Positions 29,829 through 37,764 of a stretch of DNA of 39,891 nt are shown piece by piece. The position numbers and the translations under genes were made by a program. How positions within the stretch are numbered: position 1 is the stretch's first letter; each line of letters starts with the position of its first letter. Origin of the DNA: Escherichia phage HEMP4. Location: the sequence record OR424387.1. One strand, written 5' to 3'. The notes under the pieces were generated by a model. The model had not been told where the DNA came from, searched no databases, and worked only from the letters and a program-made list of their open reading frames with translations.

Positions 29829-32303
29829 ATGAGACAGGAATGTATACAAGCGGTCCAGCAGGCGGCGCAGCGCACGTTAACGGCGCGAGAAATACAGAAC
29901 ATTGAAGACCGCATTTATCGAAATATGCGCTCCATTGCTCGTGATGACCCGATGTCGTGGCGACAACTTTCCGAATCAGAACGGTTGTATCGTGCAGCAC
30001 AATTGGCATCTGAAGAATTACAGCGAGAAGCGGCATTAAAGAAACGTCGTGTGGCCCTCACTATAGCCGCACGTCAGAGATTGGATAAATTTATCAATAG
30101 CTATCAAGGGGCTGATGGGAAACTTGGCGCTCTTAACCGTACTATTGCTTTTAATGCAGACGGTAAATCGAATTTCCTCTCTGTTGAATCCAGAACAAAA
30201 GCCACCCGTGATTATGCATTGAGTCAATTGCAGGAGGCATTCGAAGCAGTTGATCCTCGCTTTTTTGGTCTGTTTGAAGATGAAGCGGGCGTACGTGACC
30301 TGATATATGAAATGCGGGGGCAAAATACTGGCAATGCTAAAGCAAGAAAAGGTGCTAAGGCGTGGAGAGAAGTTACAGAGCTGCTGCGCCGCCGGTTTAA
30401 TGATGCTGGTGGGGACATTGGCTATCTCGAAAACTGGGGGATCCCTCAACATCATTCTATGGAAAAGGTTGGGGCGGTATCAAAAGATAAATGGGTTAGC
30501 GATGTTATAGGTAAGCTGGATCGCAAATATTATACCCGAGCCGATGGACAACTGATGAACGATGCCGAGTTGTCTGCATTTCTTGGAGAGGCTTATAACA
30601 CGATCGCTACTGGTGGGCTGAATAAGCTTACTGATACCGGAATGCGAATTTCCGGCGCACGTGCTAACCGTGGTAATGCATCACGACAGATACATTTCAA
30701 AGATGCAGATTCCTATCTGCAATATCAGCAACTTTATGGCGATCGCTCTCTATGGGAAATCATGGTCGGTCACCTGGAAGGTATCAGTAAAGATATTGCA
30801 CTGGTGGAAACATATGGTCCAAACCCCGATCATGTTTTCCGCTCTCTTCTTGATCAGGTGAAGGCAGAAACGGCAACAGCTAACCCGAGTAAAACCGGTA
30901 AAGTCGAGCGGCTGGCGAACAACACAGAGAATCTGTACAACTTTATTTCCGGAAAGACACAGCCTGTAGCGAATCCGCACATCGCGCGATGGTCTGACAA
31001 TATCCGCAACTGGCTGGTTGCCAGCAGACTCGGATCCGCGTTGCTGTCATCGTTCTCTGATCTTGGAACCATGTATCTGTCTGCGAAGGTTACCAACCTT
31101 CCAATGAACCAGTTATTCCGCAACCAGCTTGAAGCTATGGACCCAACGAACCGTACAGAACTTGCGCGGGCGCGCCGCGCTGGTCTGGCGATGGAATCTC
31201 TACTTGGCAGCGTTAACCGCTGGGCGATGGATAATATGGGGCCGTCTGTGTCTCGTTGGGCTGCAACGGCGGTAATGCGTGCCAGTGGGCTTACAGCATG
31301 GTCAGATGCGCACAAGCGCGCCTATGGCGTAACCATGATGGGAAGCCTGGGAGAAGTAGTGTCACGGACACCAGACCTTCGTCGCCTCGATGACTCTGAT
31401 TTTCGTATCCTGAAAAGCAAAGGGATTACTGACACAGACTGGAGCGTATGGAAGTTGGCGCAACAGGAGGACTGGGGGAACGGTAATAATACGATGCTGA
31501 CACCGGAAAGCATTATGCGTATCCCTGATTCAGCAGTTAAACATCTTGGTGAGCCTGAACGCGTGAAATTTGAGGCAATGCGTAAACTGCTCGGTGCCGT
31601 AACTGAAGAAGTTGATATGGCTGTTATTACACCGGGAGCACGTGAGCAACTGATAACCGGTTCTGGTATTCAGCGTGGAACATGGAAAGGTGAATTAACG
31701 AGAAGTGTTTTCCTGTTTAAATCGTTCCCTATCTCGGTTGTTATGCGTCACTGGTCACGCGCTATGGGTATGCCGTCTGCTGGTGGGCGTGCGGCATATA
31801 TTGCGACGTTTATTGCCAGTACGACCATTCTTGGCGCTTTGTCGCAACAACTTAACGACCTTGCGTCTGGTCGTAATCCTCGAGAGATGACAGGAGAAGA
31901 TGCTGCTAAATTTTGGCTTGGTGCTCTACTGAAAGGTGGTGGTCTTGGCCTTTACGGTGACTTTTTATTGTCAGATCACACTAGGTACGGGAGCGGCGCG
32001 CTGGCGTCGATGCTTGGCCCGGTAGCTGGTCTGGTTGATGACGTAGTGAAGATAGCTCAGGGCATACCGCTAAATGCTGTGGAAGGGAAGAGTGAGCAGA
32101 CTGGTGGTGATCTGGTGAAGCTGGGGAAAGGTTTGATGCCAGGTGCGAATCTCTGGTACTTGAAGGCGGCTCTCGATCACATGATCTTTAATCAGATGCA
32201 GGAGTATTTTTCACCAGGCTATTTGCGTAAAATGGAGCAACGTTCGAAGAAAGAGTTTAACCAGACATACTGGTGGCGACCTCAGGATGTCACTCCGCAA
32301 TAA
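29829..32303 (+). CDS. Large internal virion / ejection protein (824 aa)
   Basis: Large ORF completing structural operon. Confidence 0.5.
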   Translation: MRQECIQAVQQAAQRTLTAREIQNIEDRIYRNMRSIARDDPMSWRQLSESERLYRAAQLASEELQREAALKKRRVALTIAARQRLDKFINSYQGADGKLGALNRTIAFNADGKSNFLSVESRTKATRDYALSQLQEAFEAVDPRFFGLFEDEAGVRDLIYEMRGQNTGNAKARKGAKAWREVTELLRRRFNDAGGDIGYLENWGIPQHHSMEKVGAVSKDKWVSDVIGKLDRKYYTRADGQLMNDAELSAFLGEAYNTIATGGLNKLTDTGMRISGARANRGNASRQIHFKDADSYLQYQQLYGDRSLWEIMVGHLEGISKDIALVETYGPNPDHVFRSLLDQVKAETATANPSKTGKVERLANNTENLYNFISGKTQPVANPHIARWSDNIRNWLVASRLGSALLSSFSDLGTMYLSAKVTNLPMNQLFRNQLEAMDPTNRTELARARRAGLAMESLLGSVNRWAMDNMGPSVSRWAATAVMRASGLTAWSDAHKRAYGVTMMGSLGEVVSRTPDLRRLDDSDFRILKSKGITDTDWSVWKLAQQEDWGNGNNTMLTPESIMRIPDSAVKHLGEPERVKFEAMRKLLGAVTEEVDMAVITPGAREQLITGSGIQRGTWKGELTRSVFLFKSFPISVVMRHWSRAMGMPSAGGRAAYIATFIASTTILGALSQQLNDLASGRNPREMTGEDAAKFWLGALLKGGGLGLYGDFLLSDHTRYGSGALASMLGPVAGLVDDVVKIAQGIPLNAVEGKSEQTGGDLVKLGKGLMPGANLWYLKAALDHMIFNQMQEYFSPGYLRKMEQRSKKEFNQTYWWRPQDVTPQ

Positions 32304-32312
32304 GGAAGTGTT

Positions 32313-32486
32313 GTGTTTTTAATTATTTTGAGTGTGATAATTTCTGGTGGATTGTTATTTATTGACCGCTACAAATATTTTCTTAACCCTCAGACTCAAG
32401 CTATTTGCTGGTTCATCTTTGTTGTGCAGGGAGTAGTTCTTGTTGCAAGCCTTATTGAGGGGAGGCCTCTTATTTTTACTGGGTAA
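32313..32486 (+). CDS. Small hydrophobic protein (57 aa), putative membrane protein
   Basis: Hand-translated from GTG 32313 (AAGGA SD 6 nt upstream): MFLIILSVIISGGLLFIDRYKYFLNPQTQAICWFIFVVQGVVLVASLIEGRPLIFTG; below ORF-track cutoff. Confidence 0.3.
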   Translation: MFLIILSVIISGGLLFIDRYKYFLNPQTQAICWFIFVVQGVVLVASLIEGRPLIFTG

Positions 32487-32498
32487 ATAGGTGACTAC

Positions 32499-32795
32499 AT
32501 GCAAGCTATAGGATTCATTGTTTATATCGTCGTTGGTCTTTTTCAGTTGGCAGCAATTATGGCTGGGCTTGAATCATGGTGGGGATTGCACTGGATAATT
32601 GCAGCCCCCATTGCTTTCATCGTGAGCTATATTCCATTTGTTGGAGCGATTGTTGGTATGGTTGGCGCTGTGGATGTATGGCGGTGGGAGTGGTGGCAGG
32701 CTGGCCTTCTCTTCTTTGGTGGGATCATCTTTGCTATTGTCTGCGGTGGAATGTCATCATTTTTCGAATGGCTATCATTCAGAAAAGGGACGTGA
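32499..32795 (+). CDS. Small integral membrane protein (98 aa, about 3 TM segments)
   Basis: Highly hydrophobic; AGGTGA SD; stop codon inside GTGACATGTCAC palindrome, then terminator. Confidence 0.5.
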   Translation: MQAIGFIVYIVVGLFQLAAIMAGLESWWGLHWIIAAPIAFIVSYIPFVGAIVGMVGAVDVWRWEWWQAGLLFFGGIIFAIVCGGMSSFFEWLSFRKGT

Positions 32796-32803: not shown

Positions 32804-32804
32804 A

Positions 32805-32828
32805 GGCCGCTTTCGCGGCCTTGTTTTT
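32805..32828 (+). terminator. Rho-independent terminator
   Basis: GGCCGC-tttc-GCGGCC followed by TTGTTTTT. Confidence 0.7.
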
Positions 32829-33054
32829 AACGAATGCCACCGCCGCCCGGGCGGGAATCCGCAGAACGCCCACCGCAGCGGGAGCCGTCAGCGGCAGTGT
32901 CGCTGTCGTGCTGACAACGACCGGCAAAGGCCTGAGTTGAAGCTACCAGAGACAACAAAACGAACAGTGCAGCAAATGCTTTTTTCATTGTGAAATTTCC
33001 ATCTATAAGCCACCTCAATGTGGCGTCAATGAGTGTAGCACTGACTTTTGTTTC

Positions 33055-33083
33055 GTCCACAAAAAAGCCCGCAGCGCGGGCTA
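33055..33083 (-). terminator. Rho-independent terminator for moron cassette
   Basis: On minus strand TAG-CCCGC-gct-GCGGGC followed by TTTTTT; stop codon embedded in stem. Confidence 0.7.
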
Positions 33084-33521
33084 TTCTTCTTCATCATTAA
33101 AAAGCGGATTGTTGTTTCCATCTGATGAAAGGAAAGGTATGTGTTCTCTTGAAAATCCAACAATGACAATTTCATTATCATTTTTTGCATAATGAATGCA
33201 TTCATTAGAATGCCTTCCGCTAGGGTTGAAATTTAAGTTAATGGTATAATTCTTAAATGTGTTTGGATACCATGTTGGCCCACAATGATAATGCCAATAA
33301 TTCTCTTGCTCATAATTGTCTGAGCCGGGAATTTTATCATGGTTATCATCAACCCATGAGGGCTTGTTTTTTCCAACAAGCGCCCTTCCATTGGCAACAT
33401 CCTCTAAAAAACTTTGTATGATTTTTATTTCATCATCAGTAAGGAAAGGTCCGTCTACAGCGAAAGGGGTGTTGCTTTCCCCATGTAGAAAACTATTAGA
33501 TATTCTAATGTTAAACTTCAA
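33081..33521 (-). CDS. Hypothetical moron protein B (146 aa), AT-rich, acidic C-terminus, probable TTG start
   Basis: ORF track 33081..33662; no in-frame ATG after upstream gene stop; TTG at 33521 sits 7 nt after AGGAG; Asn/Asp/Glu-rich with HYHCGP and C-terminal NDEEE. Confidence 0.5.
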   Translation of the reverse strand: MKFNIRISNSFLHGESNTPFAVDGPFLTDDEIKIIQSFLEDVANGRALVGKNKPSWVDDNHDKIPGSDNYEQENYWHYHCGPTWYPNTFKNYTINLNFNPSGRHSNECIHYAKNDNEIVIVGFSREHIPFLSSDGNNNPLFNDEEE

Positions 33522-33541
33522 GGAAAACTCCTGATGTGCTT

Positions 33542-33709
33542 CTATTTGGAGCGAAATGCCGCCTTGAAGTCGCTGAAAGATGTTCCTGTCTGGTAAACCA
33601 TATCCTTGTCGCGCTCTTTGCTTGCGCGGCCAAGCATAACTTTTCCAATGACATCCCAGCATTGCTTGGCTTGTTCATTGTGCTGAGTACGATTTTTCAA
33701 CGCTGTCAT
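33542..33709 (-). CDS. Hypothetical small moron protein A (55 aa)
   Basis: Hand-translated MTALKNRTQHNEQAKQCWDVIGKVMLGRASKERDKDMVYQTGTSFSDFKAAFRSK; GGAGG SD 6 nt upstream; operator-like site just upstream. Confidence 0.4.
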   Translation of the reverse strand: MTALKNRTQHNEQAKQCWDVIGKVMLGRASKERDKDMVYQTGTSFSDFKAAFRSK

Positions 33710-33779: not shown

Positions 33780-34045
33780 GCACATCCCTGTGCCGCCGCC
33801 CGTCAGAAGAACCCAGCCTTGTCGTTGATGTACTCCGCGTGGGTCTGGATATCACGCAGGCATTTGCTCACACCGACGATGTAGCAGAACATGGTGGTCA
33901 GCTCCGCCGCCGCGCCCGATACGTCGTGCCCGTCTTCCTGTAACTGGTTCAGCAGATTCATCAGCAGTGAGTTCTCCGTCAGGCCGAGAACACCAGACGG
34001 CGAATGAATCAGGCTACGGTAGCCGGGCTTCAGTGGGGCACTGTA
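33780..34045. repeat. Internal direct repeat copy B (matches 1578..1842)
   Basis: Same as copy A. Confidence 0.85.
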
Positions 34046-34513
34046 GGTTTTGTTCTCTATCTTCATCGCCTGCATTACTGCTGACGCCGTGGCGTTGGCT
34101 ACCTGGTCGGCAACCATCTTTATGCGTTCTTCCTGCGGGAGCGAGTTTTTAATGTAACTTCCGGTGCGGCGGATCTGAGGAAGAACCTCACCTGTAACCC
34201 ATTTACGAAAGCGGTAGGGGATAGTGCCTGGTGTCACTGCGTCGCGGCAGCGGAGGATCAGTGTGTAGAGGCCTGACTCGGAGATGATGTTGATCTCTTT
34301 TACTCGGCTGTCAAAAATTGCACGATGTTCATGCCCTATGTTGAACATAGACCTTTCATCATCATCCAGTTTTTCAAGTGCTTGGGTGACGTTTTGGATG
34401 CGCAGCGCACTACAAACGTCTTGGGCTACAAACCATGGTTGGCCATCGATAATGATGGAACGGATAGGGTTAACAGATTCAAATTTGAAGATGGCAGTTT
34501 GAGCATTAGCCAT
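33803..34513 (-). CDS. Bro-N domain antirepressor-like protein with shared C-terminal domain
   Basis: ATG at 34513 (ORF track GTG 34528); N-terminal AIFKFESVNPIRSIIIDGQPWFVAQDVCSAL is classic Bro-N; C-terminal 80 aa identical to C-terminus of 1600..2256 gene. Confidence 0.75.
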   Translation of the reverse strand: MANAQTAIFKFESVNPIRSIIIDGQPWFVAQDVCSALRIQNVTQALEKLDDDERSMFNIGHEHRAIFDSRVKEINIISESGLYTLILRCRDAVTPGTIPYRFRKWVTGEVLPQIRRTGSYIKNSLPQEERIKMVADQVANATASAVMQAMKIENKTYSAPLKPGYRSLIHSPSGVLGLTENSLLMNLLNQLQEDGHDVSGAAAELTTMFCYIVGVSKCLRDIQTHAEYINDKAGFF

Positions 34514-34667
34514 GGTGGTTATCTCCACTTAGTGATTTTAATCACCACCGCAACGCCAATTACTGGTGGTGAACTGGACAAGGTTGGCGTACCGGCCTAA
34601 GTGGTACCGGCGTCCTTTCGGACCCCTGCCCAGCCCACCATAATTCGGATATAGCTGTGCTTAACGC

Positions 34668-34780
34668 ATAAAAAAACCACGTCTGGCGTGGTATGCGCCA
34701 CTTAGTAACTCGGGACGCCAATCCCGGCACTGGATTTTGCCAGTGCCTGATTACTATGGCACAAGAGGAGTGCGATGTAA
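34668..34780 (-). ncRNA. Candidate structured small RNA or leader upstream of Bro-N gene
   Basis: Minus-strand noncoding segment with stem-loops GGCACTGG-caaaat-CCAGTGCC and CGGGA-ttggcg-TCCCG, ending in terminator ACCACG-ccaga-CGTGGT plus U7; begins just downstream of operator-like site. Confidence 0.3.
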
Positions 34781-35281: not shown

Positions 35282-37471
35282 ATGACGGTCTCAACCGAAG
35301 TTGACCACAACGAATACACAGGTAACGGCGTTACGACATCATTTCCGTATACCTTCCGTATTTTCAAAAAATCCGACCTGGTTGTTCAGGTGTCTGACCT
35401 GAACGGGAACGTAACAGAATTGGTTCTGGATACCGGTTATACGGTAACTGGGGCGGGCACTTATAGTGGCGGTTCTGTGGTTCTTCCGTCTCCGCTTGCT
35501 GCTGGCTGGCGAATTACGATAGAGCGTGTGCTTGATGTGGTGCAGGAGACTGATCTTCGCAATCAGGGAAAATTTTTCCCCGAAGTTCATGAAGATGCAT
35601 TTGACTACCTGACGATGCTGATCCAGCGATGTTTTGGGTGGTTCAGACGTGCATTGATGAAACCATCTTTGCTTGCAAAATATTACGATGCAAAGCAAAA
35701 CAAAATTTCTAACCTTGCAGATCCATCATTTGAGCAGGACGCTGTAAATAATCGCTCAATGCGTAATTATGTCGATGCTGCAATCGCCGGGGTTGTTGGT
35801 GGTTTTGGTTGGTTTATACCGTCAGGAAGCGGGGCAAGACAACGAACATTTCAAAGCAAAATGAGGGATATAATTTCTCCTTGTGATTACGAAGATAATA
35901 TTTTTATGATTAAGGAGTTGATATCCAAAGGCAAAAATGCCGCTGTTTTTAACTCATATTATACTTTTGTTATTACTGTTGGCGAATGGGGTGATTACCC
36001 TACACTCAAAGATGCAATCATTGCAGCCCAGTCAATGAGACCTATGTGGGATGGTGGTAATGCTTTCTGCGAAATAAGAATTAAGACCGGGCATATTATC
36101 AACTATCAAATTGAATTCAGTTCAGGTGTTGATTTGTCTTGGATTAAAATAACATCAGAAGACTCAGTGGTTTTCTCTGACACTCGTTTGTTTACTAAAA
36201 TCGTTAGAACGTATTACGAATACAAGTATTTATTTTACATTTGCGATGCAGCAAAAAGTCCTGTATTTGCTATTCAGATCGAAGAAAATAGAGATGATAG
36301 CGATGTTTGTGCATTTATTGTAACTCAAAAAGCTGAACTTAATTTCTATCCGTATTCAGGTGCTCGAAAGTTCTACGTTGGAATTCATGGTAGTTTTGGT
36401 GCAAAAATTAGTGCATATCATACCGGATGTGCTCCTGATGAGGAAAGTGTTGCTGCATATATGCCAGAAGGGTATTACGTATGTGATTTTTCTTATAGCA
36501 GATACTCTTCCCTGCAACTGGTAAATAATGTCAAGGCATCAATGCCTGTAAGCAAGTTTGAACGGTGCACAGAGAGTACGGTTGCGTCAGTTAATTGTAT
36601 TTATAATGTTAAAGCAGATTTTCAGGGGTCAAGTGCAAGCTATTGTTATATAGGATGGAATGTAAGAGATGGTTCAAATGTTAATATACGCGACCATAAA
36701 ACTATACATTGCTCATATCGTGGATTAACCTGCATTCATACAGCATATGTTGATGCAAGACGACATGACGTTGAAGAAAGTGATGCAGAAACAAGTGGTA
36801 AAGTCCTTGAACCAAATATTGAAAAAGGTTTTTATGGATGTGCACTTGGTGTGCGTATTGATGGTGCGGGTTGCGTTGATGTTGCTGGTAATGATATGCG
36901 CAATTGTGGAACAGCCGTTAATGCAGACACTGGTGCTGTTATTTCAGGAAAGGCTGTAGATATCTCAGGGGCTGAGCTGGGATTTGATTGCCATGCAGGA
37001 GCATCTGTTAATTTTCCAAGGCTATGGGGTACAGATATAAAAAAATTAATGCACCTCCAAGATGGTGTAAGGTTTAACTCTAATATTTGTCATGTATTTG
37101 GTGCAAATCCCACAAAAGATATTAGATGGATTGATGTAGAGAGATCTGAAGCTTCTTTTATGAATGCAACGCTGGATGCAGATTCAGGATTTATTGCCGA
37201 CTGTGGTAGTAGGATAACCATTGAAGGAAGTAAAGTTAAAAACCAAACAATAAGAAGTTTTTTTGGATCATATGTGGCTATAAATAATACTGTTGCTGAC
37301 AGAACTTATTCAGATATAGCCGATGTTCCGCAGTTGACTATTAGTGGAGGATCTTTTATTTCTGCTACAGGATATTCTAATTCTGACTCCAGCCCTCTGA
37401 GGTTGAGCACAACACGAAATACACTTGGCGTTGGAGGAGCCATATTTTCAACCAATGGGGAAGTTTCATGA
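35282..37471 (+). CDS. Tail fiber/tailspike: T7 gp17-like N-terminal adaptor domain plus beta-helix-like receptor-binding region
   Basis: 729 aa; N-terminal YTGNGVTTSFPYTFRIFKKSDLVVQV resembles T7 tail fiber N-terminal domain; central/C-terminal Gly/Asn/Val-rich repeats typical of parallel beta-helix depolymerases; distal part AT-rich. Confidence 0.75.
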   Translation: MTVSTEVDHNEYTGNGVTTSFPYTFRIFKKSDLVVQVSDLNGNVTELVLDTGYTVTGAGTYSGGSVVLPSPLAAGWRITIERVLDVVQETDLRNQGKFFPEVHEDAFDYLTMLIQRCFGWFRRALMKPSLLAKYYDAKQNKISNLADPSFEQDAVNNRSMRNYVDAAIAGVVGGFGWFIPSGSGARQRTFQSKMRDIISPCDYEDNIFMIKELISKGKNAAVFNSYYTFVITVGEWGDYPTLKDAIIAAQSMRPMWDGGNAFCEIRIKTGHIINYQIEFSSGVDLSWIKITSEDSVVFSDTRLFTKIVRTYYEYKYLFYICDAAKSPVFAIQIEENRDDSDVCAFIVTQKAELNFYPYSGARKFYVGIHGSFGAKISAYHTGCAPDEESVAAYMPEGYYVCDFSYSRYSSLQLVNNVKASMPVSKFERCTESTVASVNCIYNVKADFQGSSASYCYIGWNVRDGSNVNIRDHKTIHCSYRGLTCIHTAYVDARRHDVEESDAETSGKVLEPNIEKGFYGCALGVRIDGAGCVDVAGNDMRNCGTAVNADTGAVISGKAVDISGAELGFDCHAGASVNFPRLWGTDIKKLMHLQDGVRFNSNICHVFGANPTKDIRWIDVERSEASFMNATLDADSGFIADCGSRITIEGSKVKNQTIRSFFGSYVAINNTVADRTYSDIADVPQLTISGGSFISATGYSNSDSSPLRLSTTRNTLGVGGAIFSTNGEVS

Positions 37472-37764
37472 TTAAGAGCATTGATGTCACTCCATTTCTT
37501 CACTCGCTTTGCGCTTTTGTGGCTCAGGTACTGGTTGGTATTTTTACCGGAAACTGGGCTTACGGTGCGATAGCCGGTTGTACGTTCTTCATTGCGCGTG
37601 AACACACCCAGGCAGAATATCGCTGGATAGAAAAGTTTGGGAAAGGGAAACGTATCAACATGCCGTGGTGGGGAGGTTTTGATCCACGCGTGTGGGATGT
37701 GGGAAGTCTGTTGGATTTTGCTGTTCCTGTTGTTTTTTGTTTTTGTGTTTATTTCTCTATTTGA
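37468..37764 (+). CDS. Small membrane protein (98 aa), translationally coupled to tailspike
   Basis: ATGA overlap with tailspike stop; two hydrophobic segments; function unknown. Confidence 0.5.
   Translation: MIKSIDVTPFLHSLCAFVAQVLVGIFTGNWAYGAIAGCTFFIAREHTQAEYRWIEKFGKGKRINMPWWGGFDPRVWDVGSLLDFAVPVVFCFCVYFSI

Follow-up and report, generated by a model that had tools for sequence, protein, structure and literature searches.

Three small inner-membrane protein genes of Escherichia phage HEMP4 lie in two exchangeable cassettes, one behind the ejection-protein genes and one behind the tailspike gene

Escherichia phage HEMP4 (sequence record OR424387.1) carries three small genes for predicted membrane proteins, here called orfA, orfB and orfC; the whole 39,891-nucleotide (nt) stretch that we analyzed is referred to as the window. 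By its sequence the genome is that of a Uetakevirus of the epsilon15/phiV10-like kind, whose annotated relatives are temperate podoviruses; the region is 98.8% identical to Escherichia phage phiv142-3, and its flanks also match phiV10-type phages. Three large ejection-protein genes are followed by orfA, orfB, a terminator and a minus-strand block with a Bro-N antirepressor-like gene, and then by the tailspike gene, orfC, two holin-family genes, a GH19 endolysin gene and spanin genes (Table 1). An initial annotation of the sequence had described hydrophobic proteins of 57 and 98 amino acids (aa) encoded back to back at the end of the structural operon before a terminator, together with a third membrane protein of 98 aa coupled to the tailspike. 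The genes and their coordinates are confirmed, each gene has a ribosome-binding site, a hairpin with a T-run follows orfB, and the coupling takes the form of an ATGA overlap between the orfC start codon and the TGA stop codon of the tailspike gene. We conclude that the three genes encode accessory inner-membrane proteins carried in two exchangeable Uetakevirus cassettes.

Table 1. Coordinates of orfA, orfB, orfC and associated features in the window
Feature	Coordinates	Strand	Basis or remark
orfA, 57-aa mini-protein forming a hairpin of two transmembrane (TM) segments, GTG start	32313..32486	+	hydropathy, ratio of nonsynonymous to synonymous substitution rates (dN/dS), family
orfB, 98-aa three-TM inner-membrane protein, ATG start	32499..32795	+	phrog_3075
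orfC, 98-aa membrane protein	37468..37764	+	phrog_1443; core FIAREHTQAEYRWI..FG.GKR.NMPWWGGFD
Last of three large internal virion (ejection) protein genes, 824 aa	29829..32303	+	homologue of phiV10 gp20 / epsilon15 gp17; left boundary of the orfA/orfB slot
Intrinsic terminator closing the structural operon	32804..32830	+	conserved in phiV10; right boundary of the slot
Tailspike, 729 aa	35282..37471	+	epsilon15-type N-terminal anchor to ~35817, then exchangeable receptor-binding domain (RBD)
Weak terminator-like hairpin and T-run	32456-32472		in the 3' end of orfA, just upstream of orfB
Open reading frame (ORF) for a small secreted or anchored protein	32827-33060	-	phrog_14503 'membrane associated protein', category moron; protein at 32827-32988 within this ORF
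193-aa protein gene	33081-33662	-	phrog_5954 (unknown function)
Bro-N antirepressor-like gene	33803-34528	-	
C4 antisense RNA match	34562-34645	-	Rfam, 66 bits, above gathering score
IsrK match	34670-34746	-	Rfam, 67 bits, above gathering score

The orfA start codon lies 9 nt past the stop codon of the 824-aa internal-protein gene and 4 nt downstream of a Shine-Dalgarno-like AAGGAAG (32302-32308), and orfB, with a ribosome-binding site of its own 4 nt upstream (AGGTGA, 32489-32494), begins 12 nt past the orfA stop codon. The start codon of orfC is preceded at 4 nt by GGGGAAG; the Prokaryotic Genome Annotation Pipeline (PGAP) places the start at 37480, 12 nt further downstream. The topology prediction that the initial annotation had proposed as a check gives, from hydropathy, two TM segments in orfA, three in orfB, and an N-terminal hairpin plus a C-terminal TM segment in orfC. 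The orfB protein combines a glycine-rich second TM segment (GAIVGMVGA) with a loop rich in Trp (DVWRWEWWQ) and a C-terminus that is short and basic, and its AlphaFold2 (AF2) model, with a mean predicted local distance difference test score (pLDDT) of 90.9, places helices at residues 2-28, 32-42/46-59 and 65-97. For orfC the corresponding model (mean pLDDT 91.8) has helices at 8-27, 30-57 and 78-97. With a GC content of 36.8%, against 48.8% for the window, orfA appears foreign in base composition; orfB (46.5%) and orfC (45.1%) are close to the window average. The terminator that follows orfB consists of a stem-loop at 32804-32821 with a 7-bp stem, six pairs of which are G-C, and then TGTTTTT; the phiV10 record annotates the same element as a terminator.

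For orfA and orfB, the comparison with Klebsiella phage BUCT711 gives a dN/dS of 0.19 and 0.02, respectively; orfC gives 0.19 when compared with phage 21. The orfC core is conserved at the protein level, with a dS of 0.73 in that comparison and an alignment with 21 invariant columns, among them D6, H12, R44, T47-I54, R62 and C91. Because dN/dS is low, each gene belongs to a family of several clusters, and length and frame are kept in relatives, we regard orfA, orfB and orfC as genuine genes under purifying selection and not as chance ORFs. RefSeq records that contain the orfA-orfB stretch usually annotate orfB alone.

The orfA and orfB genes occupy a slot whose contents differ between phages of nearly the same backbone. 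The ejection-protein gene is conserved to its stop codon in phiV10 and phiv142-3, and when these two phages and the window are aligned by eye, their DNA is common up to that codon and again from just before the terminator, with unrelated small genes between the shared flanks. We surveyed 80 loci in IMG/VR in which the C-terminus of the ejection protein is at least 98% identical to that in the window. The slot holds orfA and orfB in 37 of them, an unrelated 46-aa two-TM protein of the phiV10 gp21 type in 27, and an orfA-like mini-protein with a lipoprotein in nine; the remaining seven could not be assigned to an allele. In epsilon15 another two-TM protein, gp18, stands at this position. The slot is thus polymorphic on near-identical backbones: its first gene always encodes a two-TM mini-protein of 46-57 aa, and it may hold a second envelope protein, orfB here and a lipoprotein elsewhere. 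With three alleles, of which orfA/orfB is one, the slot displays the replacement polymorphism between near-identical phages that is a mark of morons, a feature that the initial annotation had missed.

The third allele, 608 nt long and found at locus L193 and eight other IMG/VR loci, encodes its orfA-like mini-protein together with a 126-138-aa lipoprotein with the lipobox LVGC; in the example examined the mini-protein is split by a frameshift. At another locus (L188), a similar lipoprotein and a 55-aa two-TM protein lie downstream of orfB. The weak hairpin within the 3' end of orfA (Table 1) may be left over from a slot allele that was shorter, or may serve as an attenuator between the two genes.

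The orfA family is narrow, with 13 clusters in the Enterobacteriaceae; in at least 60 of 80 IMG/VR loci an orfA gene precedes orfB, and the orfA-orfB stretch occurs in 216 of 5426 complete E. coli genomes (~4%). The orfB family comprises 52 clusters, to which a profile search adds 749 distant representatives at E <= 0.001, which shows that orfB belongs to a broad bacterial family. Homologues with 54-61% identity hold the same position in Uetakevirus-like prophages of Cronobacter and in a T7-like prophage of Salmonella, and a relative with 56% identity does so on a further Uetakevirus-like contig. Others are placed differently: one (52%) lies beside the integrase gene of another prophage, one (53%) is on a plasmid-like contig, and one (70%) is intact in the accessory end of a lambda-like prophage from a metagenome (L102, 4801-5297). 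This last copy adjoins a 47-codon remnant that matches the C-terminus of a Uetakevirus ejection protein, which shows that a siphovirus prophage acquired the cassette by illegitimate transfer and has kept it intact. The proposal that orfB always lies downstream of ejection-protein genes is ruled out by the prophage-end and plasmid-like copies. An orfB-like domain is also found in longer bacterial proteins (P0179, P0190, P0193 and P0195), one of which has four tandem copies, and in others it is joined to a DUF805 or RDD membrane domain, so that it is not confined to phages.

The orfC family is very large, with 428 clusters at 90% identity and 434 IMG/VR loci. The gene occurs in 1828 of the 5426 complete E. 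coli genomes, at a median of two copies and a maximum of seven, and relatives with 40-60% identity are conserved in Aeromonas and Comamonas; phiV10 and epsilon15 have no counterpart. Throughout, it is tied to genes for receptor-binding proteins (RBPs). In 77 of the 79 IMG/VR loci analyzed, which span podo-, sipho- and myovirus backbones, orfC has the same orientation as, and immediately follows, a gene or chain of genes for tail fibres or tailspikes, at a gap of no more than 76 nt. The N-terminal anchors of the upstream genes include the lambda Stf type (31 loci), a 346-aa fibre class (18), the epsilon15 type (16) and the P22 type (9); these genes carry at least seven different C-terminal domains, and all match PHROG tail families. 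The same arrangement can be seen in the annotated genomes of phage 21, of lambda-like phages and of the P22-like phages JEP4, Gally and 611R6. In a lambda-like prophage of Comamonas, orfC stands behind a GpJ-type central fibre gene, in a P2-like prophage of Aeromonas behind an H-type fibre gene inside the late operon, and in jumbo phages of Aeromonas a tailspike-like gene has a diverged relative of 87 aa just upstream of it. Both the size of the family and its tie to RBP genes across morphotypes had escaped the initial annotation, and the near-universal linkage and the use of orfC as a crossover site, described below, are new observations.

We also considered whether orfC co-varies with a single type of RBD; this was ruled out, as it follows at least seven RBD classes. 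Behind unrelated RBDs the orfC copies are 77-89% identical. What lies downstream differs between phage groups: in Uetakeviruses orfC is directly upstream of two holin-family genes, whereas in P22-like and lambda-like phages it is followed by integrase genes or morons, not lysis genes. Some copies have an AT-rich intergenic region upstream. The chromosome of E. coli BL21 contains an intact homologue (WP_000355603.1) in a Qin-like prophage (L184), next to pinQ and downstream of a disrupted side-tail-fibre gene, a 93-aa gene and a 234-aa fibre-tip gene; BL21 is thus a handy laboratory strain for work on the family.

Comparisons between phages that differ in RBD or in backbone place the boundary of exchange inside orfC. 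The window and phiv142-3 have the same backbone and different RBDs, and their homology stops at 35817, the end of the anchor, and resumes at 37481, which is codon 5 of orfC. With the P22-like phage JEP4, homology covers the RBD and orfC (36099-37727) and ends within the 3' end of orfC. The RBD classes share nothing upstream of the orfC start codon, and a conserved promoter in that position is ruled out, because inter-class homology begins at the start codon itself. Among 15 copies that we compared, those from phages with a common RBD but different backbones are 97% identical over residues 5-40; from residue 81 onward, copies of one backbone type (epsilon15-like, P22-like or lambda-like) are 94-100% identical; and over the core (residues 41-80) all 15 copies are 85-100% identical. 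Because of this mosaic pattern we conclude that orfC is a physical part of the RBD cassette, that its 5' third is transferred together with the RBD while its 3' part remains with the backbone, and that its invariant core is the right-hand crossover point of RBD swaps among epsilon15-like, P22-like and lambda-like phages. Whatever its function, orfC is therefore a landmark for the right-hand junction of RBD cassettes, useful for delimiting and engineering tailspike and fibre modules. Passages retrieved from a study of tailspike modularity report little to no similarity downstream of the RBP gene in Lederberg- and Uetakeviruses, and do not mention a gene of the orfC type (PMC10408124).

The RBD part of the HEMP4 tailspike (35837-37471) has a GC content of 37.7% and a third-position GC content (GC3) of 24%, compared with a GC3 of 41% for orfC. 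Since these values are far below those of the window and of orfC, the RBD is a recent foreign acquisition without a long shared history with the orfC allele that adjoins it.

Neither cassette is needed by the structural genes next to it, because identical ejection proteins occur with different cassettes, phiV10 and epsilon15 lack orfC, and a remnant of orfC stands behind a tailspike gene in a virulent phage. The remnant is an unannotated, truncated orfC-like ORF of 41 codons in the Salmonella Kuttervirus vB_SalA_KFSST3 (Ackermannviridae; L189, 4980-5105), which ends at the position of C38 right behind what is probably a third tailspike gene. The remnant resembles a passenger of an RBD transfer that has since decayed, and its truncation implies that this tailspike does not need orfC.

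That the proteins have no sequence-level assignment, as stated in the initial annotation, is correct. Searches of orfA, orfB and orfC against Pfam, NCBIfam and PADLOC gave nothing above threshold, and PHROGs returned families of unknown function only, phrog_3075 for orfB (E = 1.6e-54, 1-98/98) and phrog_1443 for orfC (E = 3.3e-55, 1-94/97). Family profiles matched no sequence in the PDB, and no specific fold match was found. In direct comparisons none of the three was similar to P22 SieA, GtrA, epsilon15 gp18, gp21, gp28 or gp32, phiV10 gp21 or the holins of the window; for orfB and P22 SieA, BLASTP gave E = 20. All three lack the SieA motif FxRYPxEAxxFNK and have no lipobox in their first 35 residues, and no homology to acyltransferases, Gtr, Wzy or polymerase inhibitors was detected with Pfam and NCBIfam or by BLASTP against epsilon15 gp21 and P22 GtrA. 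A literature search found no paper describing any of the three families. The kind of feature is a known one, small accessory membrane proteins at two classic positions for envelope functions in temperate podoviruses; the three families themselves are uncharacterized.

The initial annotation had argued from position that such genes often serve superinfection exclusion, injection blocking or surface modification, and the argument is sound for both sites. In P22-like phages the gene for SieA, an exclusion protein of the inner membrane, lies between ejection gene 16 and tailspike gene 9; the protein blocks the DNA conduit formed by gp16 and gp20, to which escape mutations map, and three SieA types sharing less than 30% identity occur at the one locus (PMC10883804). 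The region between genes 16 and 9 is known as the variable 'ant moron', which carries the immI antirepressor system and sieA (PMC2629481). Like SieA, the orfA and orfB proteins have several TM segments and are encoded between the ejection-protein genes and an antirepressor/tailspike region in a temperate podovirus, in a slot with several unrelated sequence types; since this slot borders an antirepressor region with C4 and IsrK RNAs, it corresponds to the 'ant moron' position. Unlike SieA, which has 162-164 aa and its characteristic motif, orfA and orfB are far smaller and dissimilar, and unlike sieA, which is convergent and has its own promoter, they are co-directional with the late operon and have no predicted promoter. 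The positional analogy with SieA is good, yet it is not membership. With phiV10 gp21 and epsilon15 gp18, orfA shares exactly the same slot and the same two-TM hairpin build; it has no detectable sequence similarity to either, and neither is accompanied by a second gene such as orfB.

For orfC the parallels lie behind tailspike genes, a place known for O-antigen modification genes in Lederberg- and Uetakeviruses (PMC10408124). Like the epsilon15 polymerase inhibitor gp21 with gp22, phiV10 Oac and P22 gtrABC, orfC is a membrane protein gene directly downstream of the tailspike gene. Those surface-conversion genes, however, are on the other strand, match the O-antigen chemistry and, where annotation shows one (P22 gtr), have a promoter of their own, whereas orfC is co-directional, overlaps the tailspike stop codon, remains the same when the RBDs in front of it are unrelated and shows no similarity to any of these genes; it can co-occur with an O-acetylase gene. 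Like Cor (phi80, N15 and T1) and Llp (T5), the orfC product is a small envelope protein that travels with an RBP gene, but Cor and Llp are FhuA-specific outer-membrane lipoproteins, while orfC has no lipobox, is predicted to be a three-helix integral membrane protein and is not restricted to one RBD class. Cor also occurs in a virulent phage, T1.

Our preferred interpretation of the three proteins, held tentatively and at less than an even chance, is an exclusion-type envelope function directed against incoming phage. It is suggested by position, by a polymorphism typical of conflict loci and by persistence in unrelated mobile contexts. On this model orfA and orfB would disturb the building of the DNA conduit across the envelope, just as SieA of P22, encoded at the corresponding place in its genome, does, and orfC would hinder a conserved envelope step needed for adsorption or entry, on the same principle as cor, llp, gtr and oac, which block or modify receptors and lie beside RBP genes. 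Because they are coupled to late genes, all three would be transcribed by late read-through, perhaps with some weak additional transcription in the prophage. Several observations weigh against this interpretation. The genes are tightly coupled to late genes and co-directional with them, which does not fit the classic prophage-expressed moron, and a scan limited to consensus matches predicted no sigma-70-like promoter upstream of any of them; expression limited to the late phase would be of little benefit to a lysogen. Of the other marks of morons, a terminator lies downstream of orfB and the deviant GC content is that of orfA. No homology to characterized exclusion proteins was found, and the near identity of orfC behind unrelated RBDs rules out a receptor-specific blocker. 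The constant association of orfC with RBP genes could reflect hitch-hiking with RBD cassettes and not function, and the distant relatives that adjoin tailspike-like genes in Aeromonas jumbo phages are intact.

Other interpretations draw on the same features. A role in lysis timing, with orfA, orfB and perhaps orfC as late holin-, antiholin- or pinholin-like modulators and orfB oriented N-out/C-in, we consider unlikely. The TM layout of all three fits holins, although the C-terminal tails are very short, and orfB resembles class I/II holins in size, number of TM segments, glycine-zipper-like second TM segment and basic tail; the genes are probably co-transcribed with late genes, and the two holin-family genes directly follow orfC in Uetakeviruses. 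The weak match of orfB to Phage_holin_5_2 (E = 0.027), however, reaches 15.2 bits against a cut-off of 29.2, and is shared by two of 29 family members and by neither orfA nor orfC. Two of 40 orfC relatives match Phage_holin_8 weakly, but hhalign gives the orfC family a probability of 0.5% against the Phage_holin_8 protein of the window. HEMP4 already has two holin-family genes, an endolysin and spanins, the endolysin gene being ~5.9 kb from orfA and orfB; orfC precedes a lysis cassette in Uetakeviruses only, and orfB also persists on plasmid-like contigs and at prophage ends. The plasmid-like contigs, the breadth of the orfB family in bacteria (the 749 representatives, some of them DUF805 or RDD fusions) and the lipoprotein that the slot also gathers would fit a host-fitness moron apart from phage exclusion, for instance an orphan bacteriocin immunity protein or a factor in envelope stress or a surface property. 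Colicin and microcin immunity proteins do resemble orfB in size and three-TM layout. We nevertheless think this distinctly improbable, as no cognate toxin or partner gene was identified among the neighbouring genes examined, no promoter is predicted and there is no similarity to any named family.

It is also doubtful, to much the same degree, that the proteins help the infection machinery, orfA and orfB by assisting or restraining the ejection proteins and orfC by aiding maturation, assembly or deployment of the fibre or tailspike. The idea would account for orfB homologues downstream of the last ejection-protein gene in the Cronobacter and Salmonella T7-like prophages and the further Uetakevirus-like contig, and for the almost universal position of orfC behind RBP genes, even inside the late operon of a P2-like prophage. 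Against it, identical ejection-protein alleles are paired with three unrelated cassettes and orfB persists in phages without these ejection proteins, while the tailspikes of phiV10 and epsilon15 function without orfC, the same orfC stands behind unrelated RBDs and the copy in the virulent Kuttervirus is truncated. Known fibre chaperones, moreover, are soluble. Least probable of all is that the main reason for keeping orfC is its DNA, as a homology arm in RBD exchange, its protein being of little function: crossovers do fall within the core and homology between phages does begin exactly at the start codon, but the low dN/dS at appreciable dS, the invariant columns with polar residues among them, the confidently predicted fold and the conservation of 40-60% identical relatives in Aeromonas and Comamonas weigh against this.

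A further and quite speculative proposal is that orfC defines a new and very common class of inner-membrane factor linked to RBPs. The invariant core, which probably faces the periplasm, would attach to a conserved component of the host envelope and so bring about self-exclusion, or protection of progeny virions, independently of receptor type, and the gene would at the same time act as a universal downstream recombination arm for host-range cassettes in podo-, sipho- and myoviruses. Candidate partners are a step common to the assembly of undecaprenyl-linked surface polysaccharides, or a membrane factor for DNA entry.

Most small phage membrane proteins lack annotation, yet the handful studied so far (SieA, Imm, Cor, Llp and Iap) control which phages can infect a cell. 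One third of complete E. coli genomes have genes of the orfC type behind receptor-binding genes, frequently as several copies; should these genes act on the envelope, phage susceptibility would be affected, and with it serotyping-by-prophage and host-range predictions for phage therapy. The three-allele slot, for its part, offers a compact natural experiment on SieA-like exclusion in a second podovirus lineage.

The minus-strand block between the two cassettes has features of its own (Table 1). The C4 and IsrK matches sit directly upstream of the Bro-N antirepressor-like gene, with which they form a c4-ant immunity module in the style of P1 and P7, at the position of the P22 immI region. The small ORF that is convergent on the orfB terminator has a GC content of 58.6%, and its product starts MKKAFAALFVLLSLVASTQAFA; by orientation it is a closer analogue of a prophage-expressed moron than orfA or orfB. 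The gene for the 193-aa protein (GC 38%) lies downstream of the antirepressor-like gene, and in other Uetakeviruses the same block holds different genes, HicA/DUF1902, DUF2335 or a YafO toxin.

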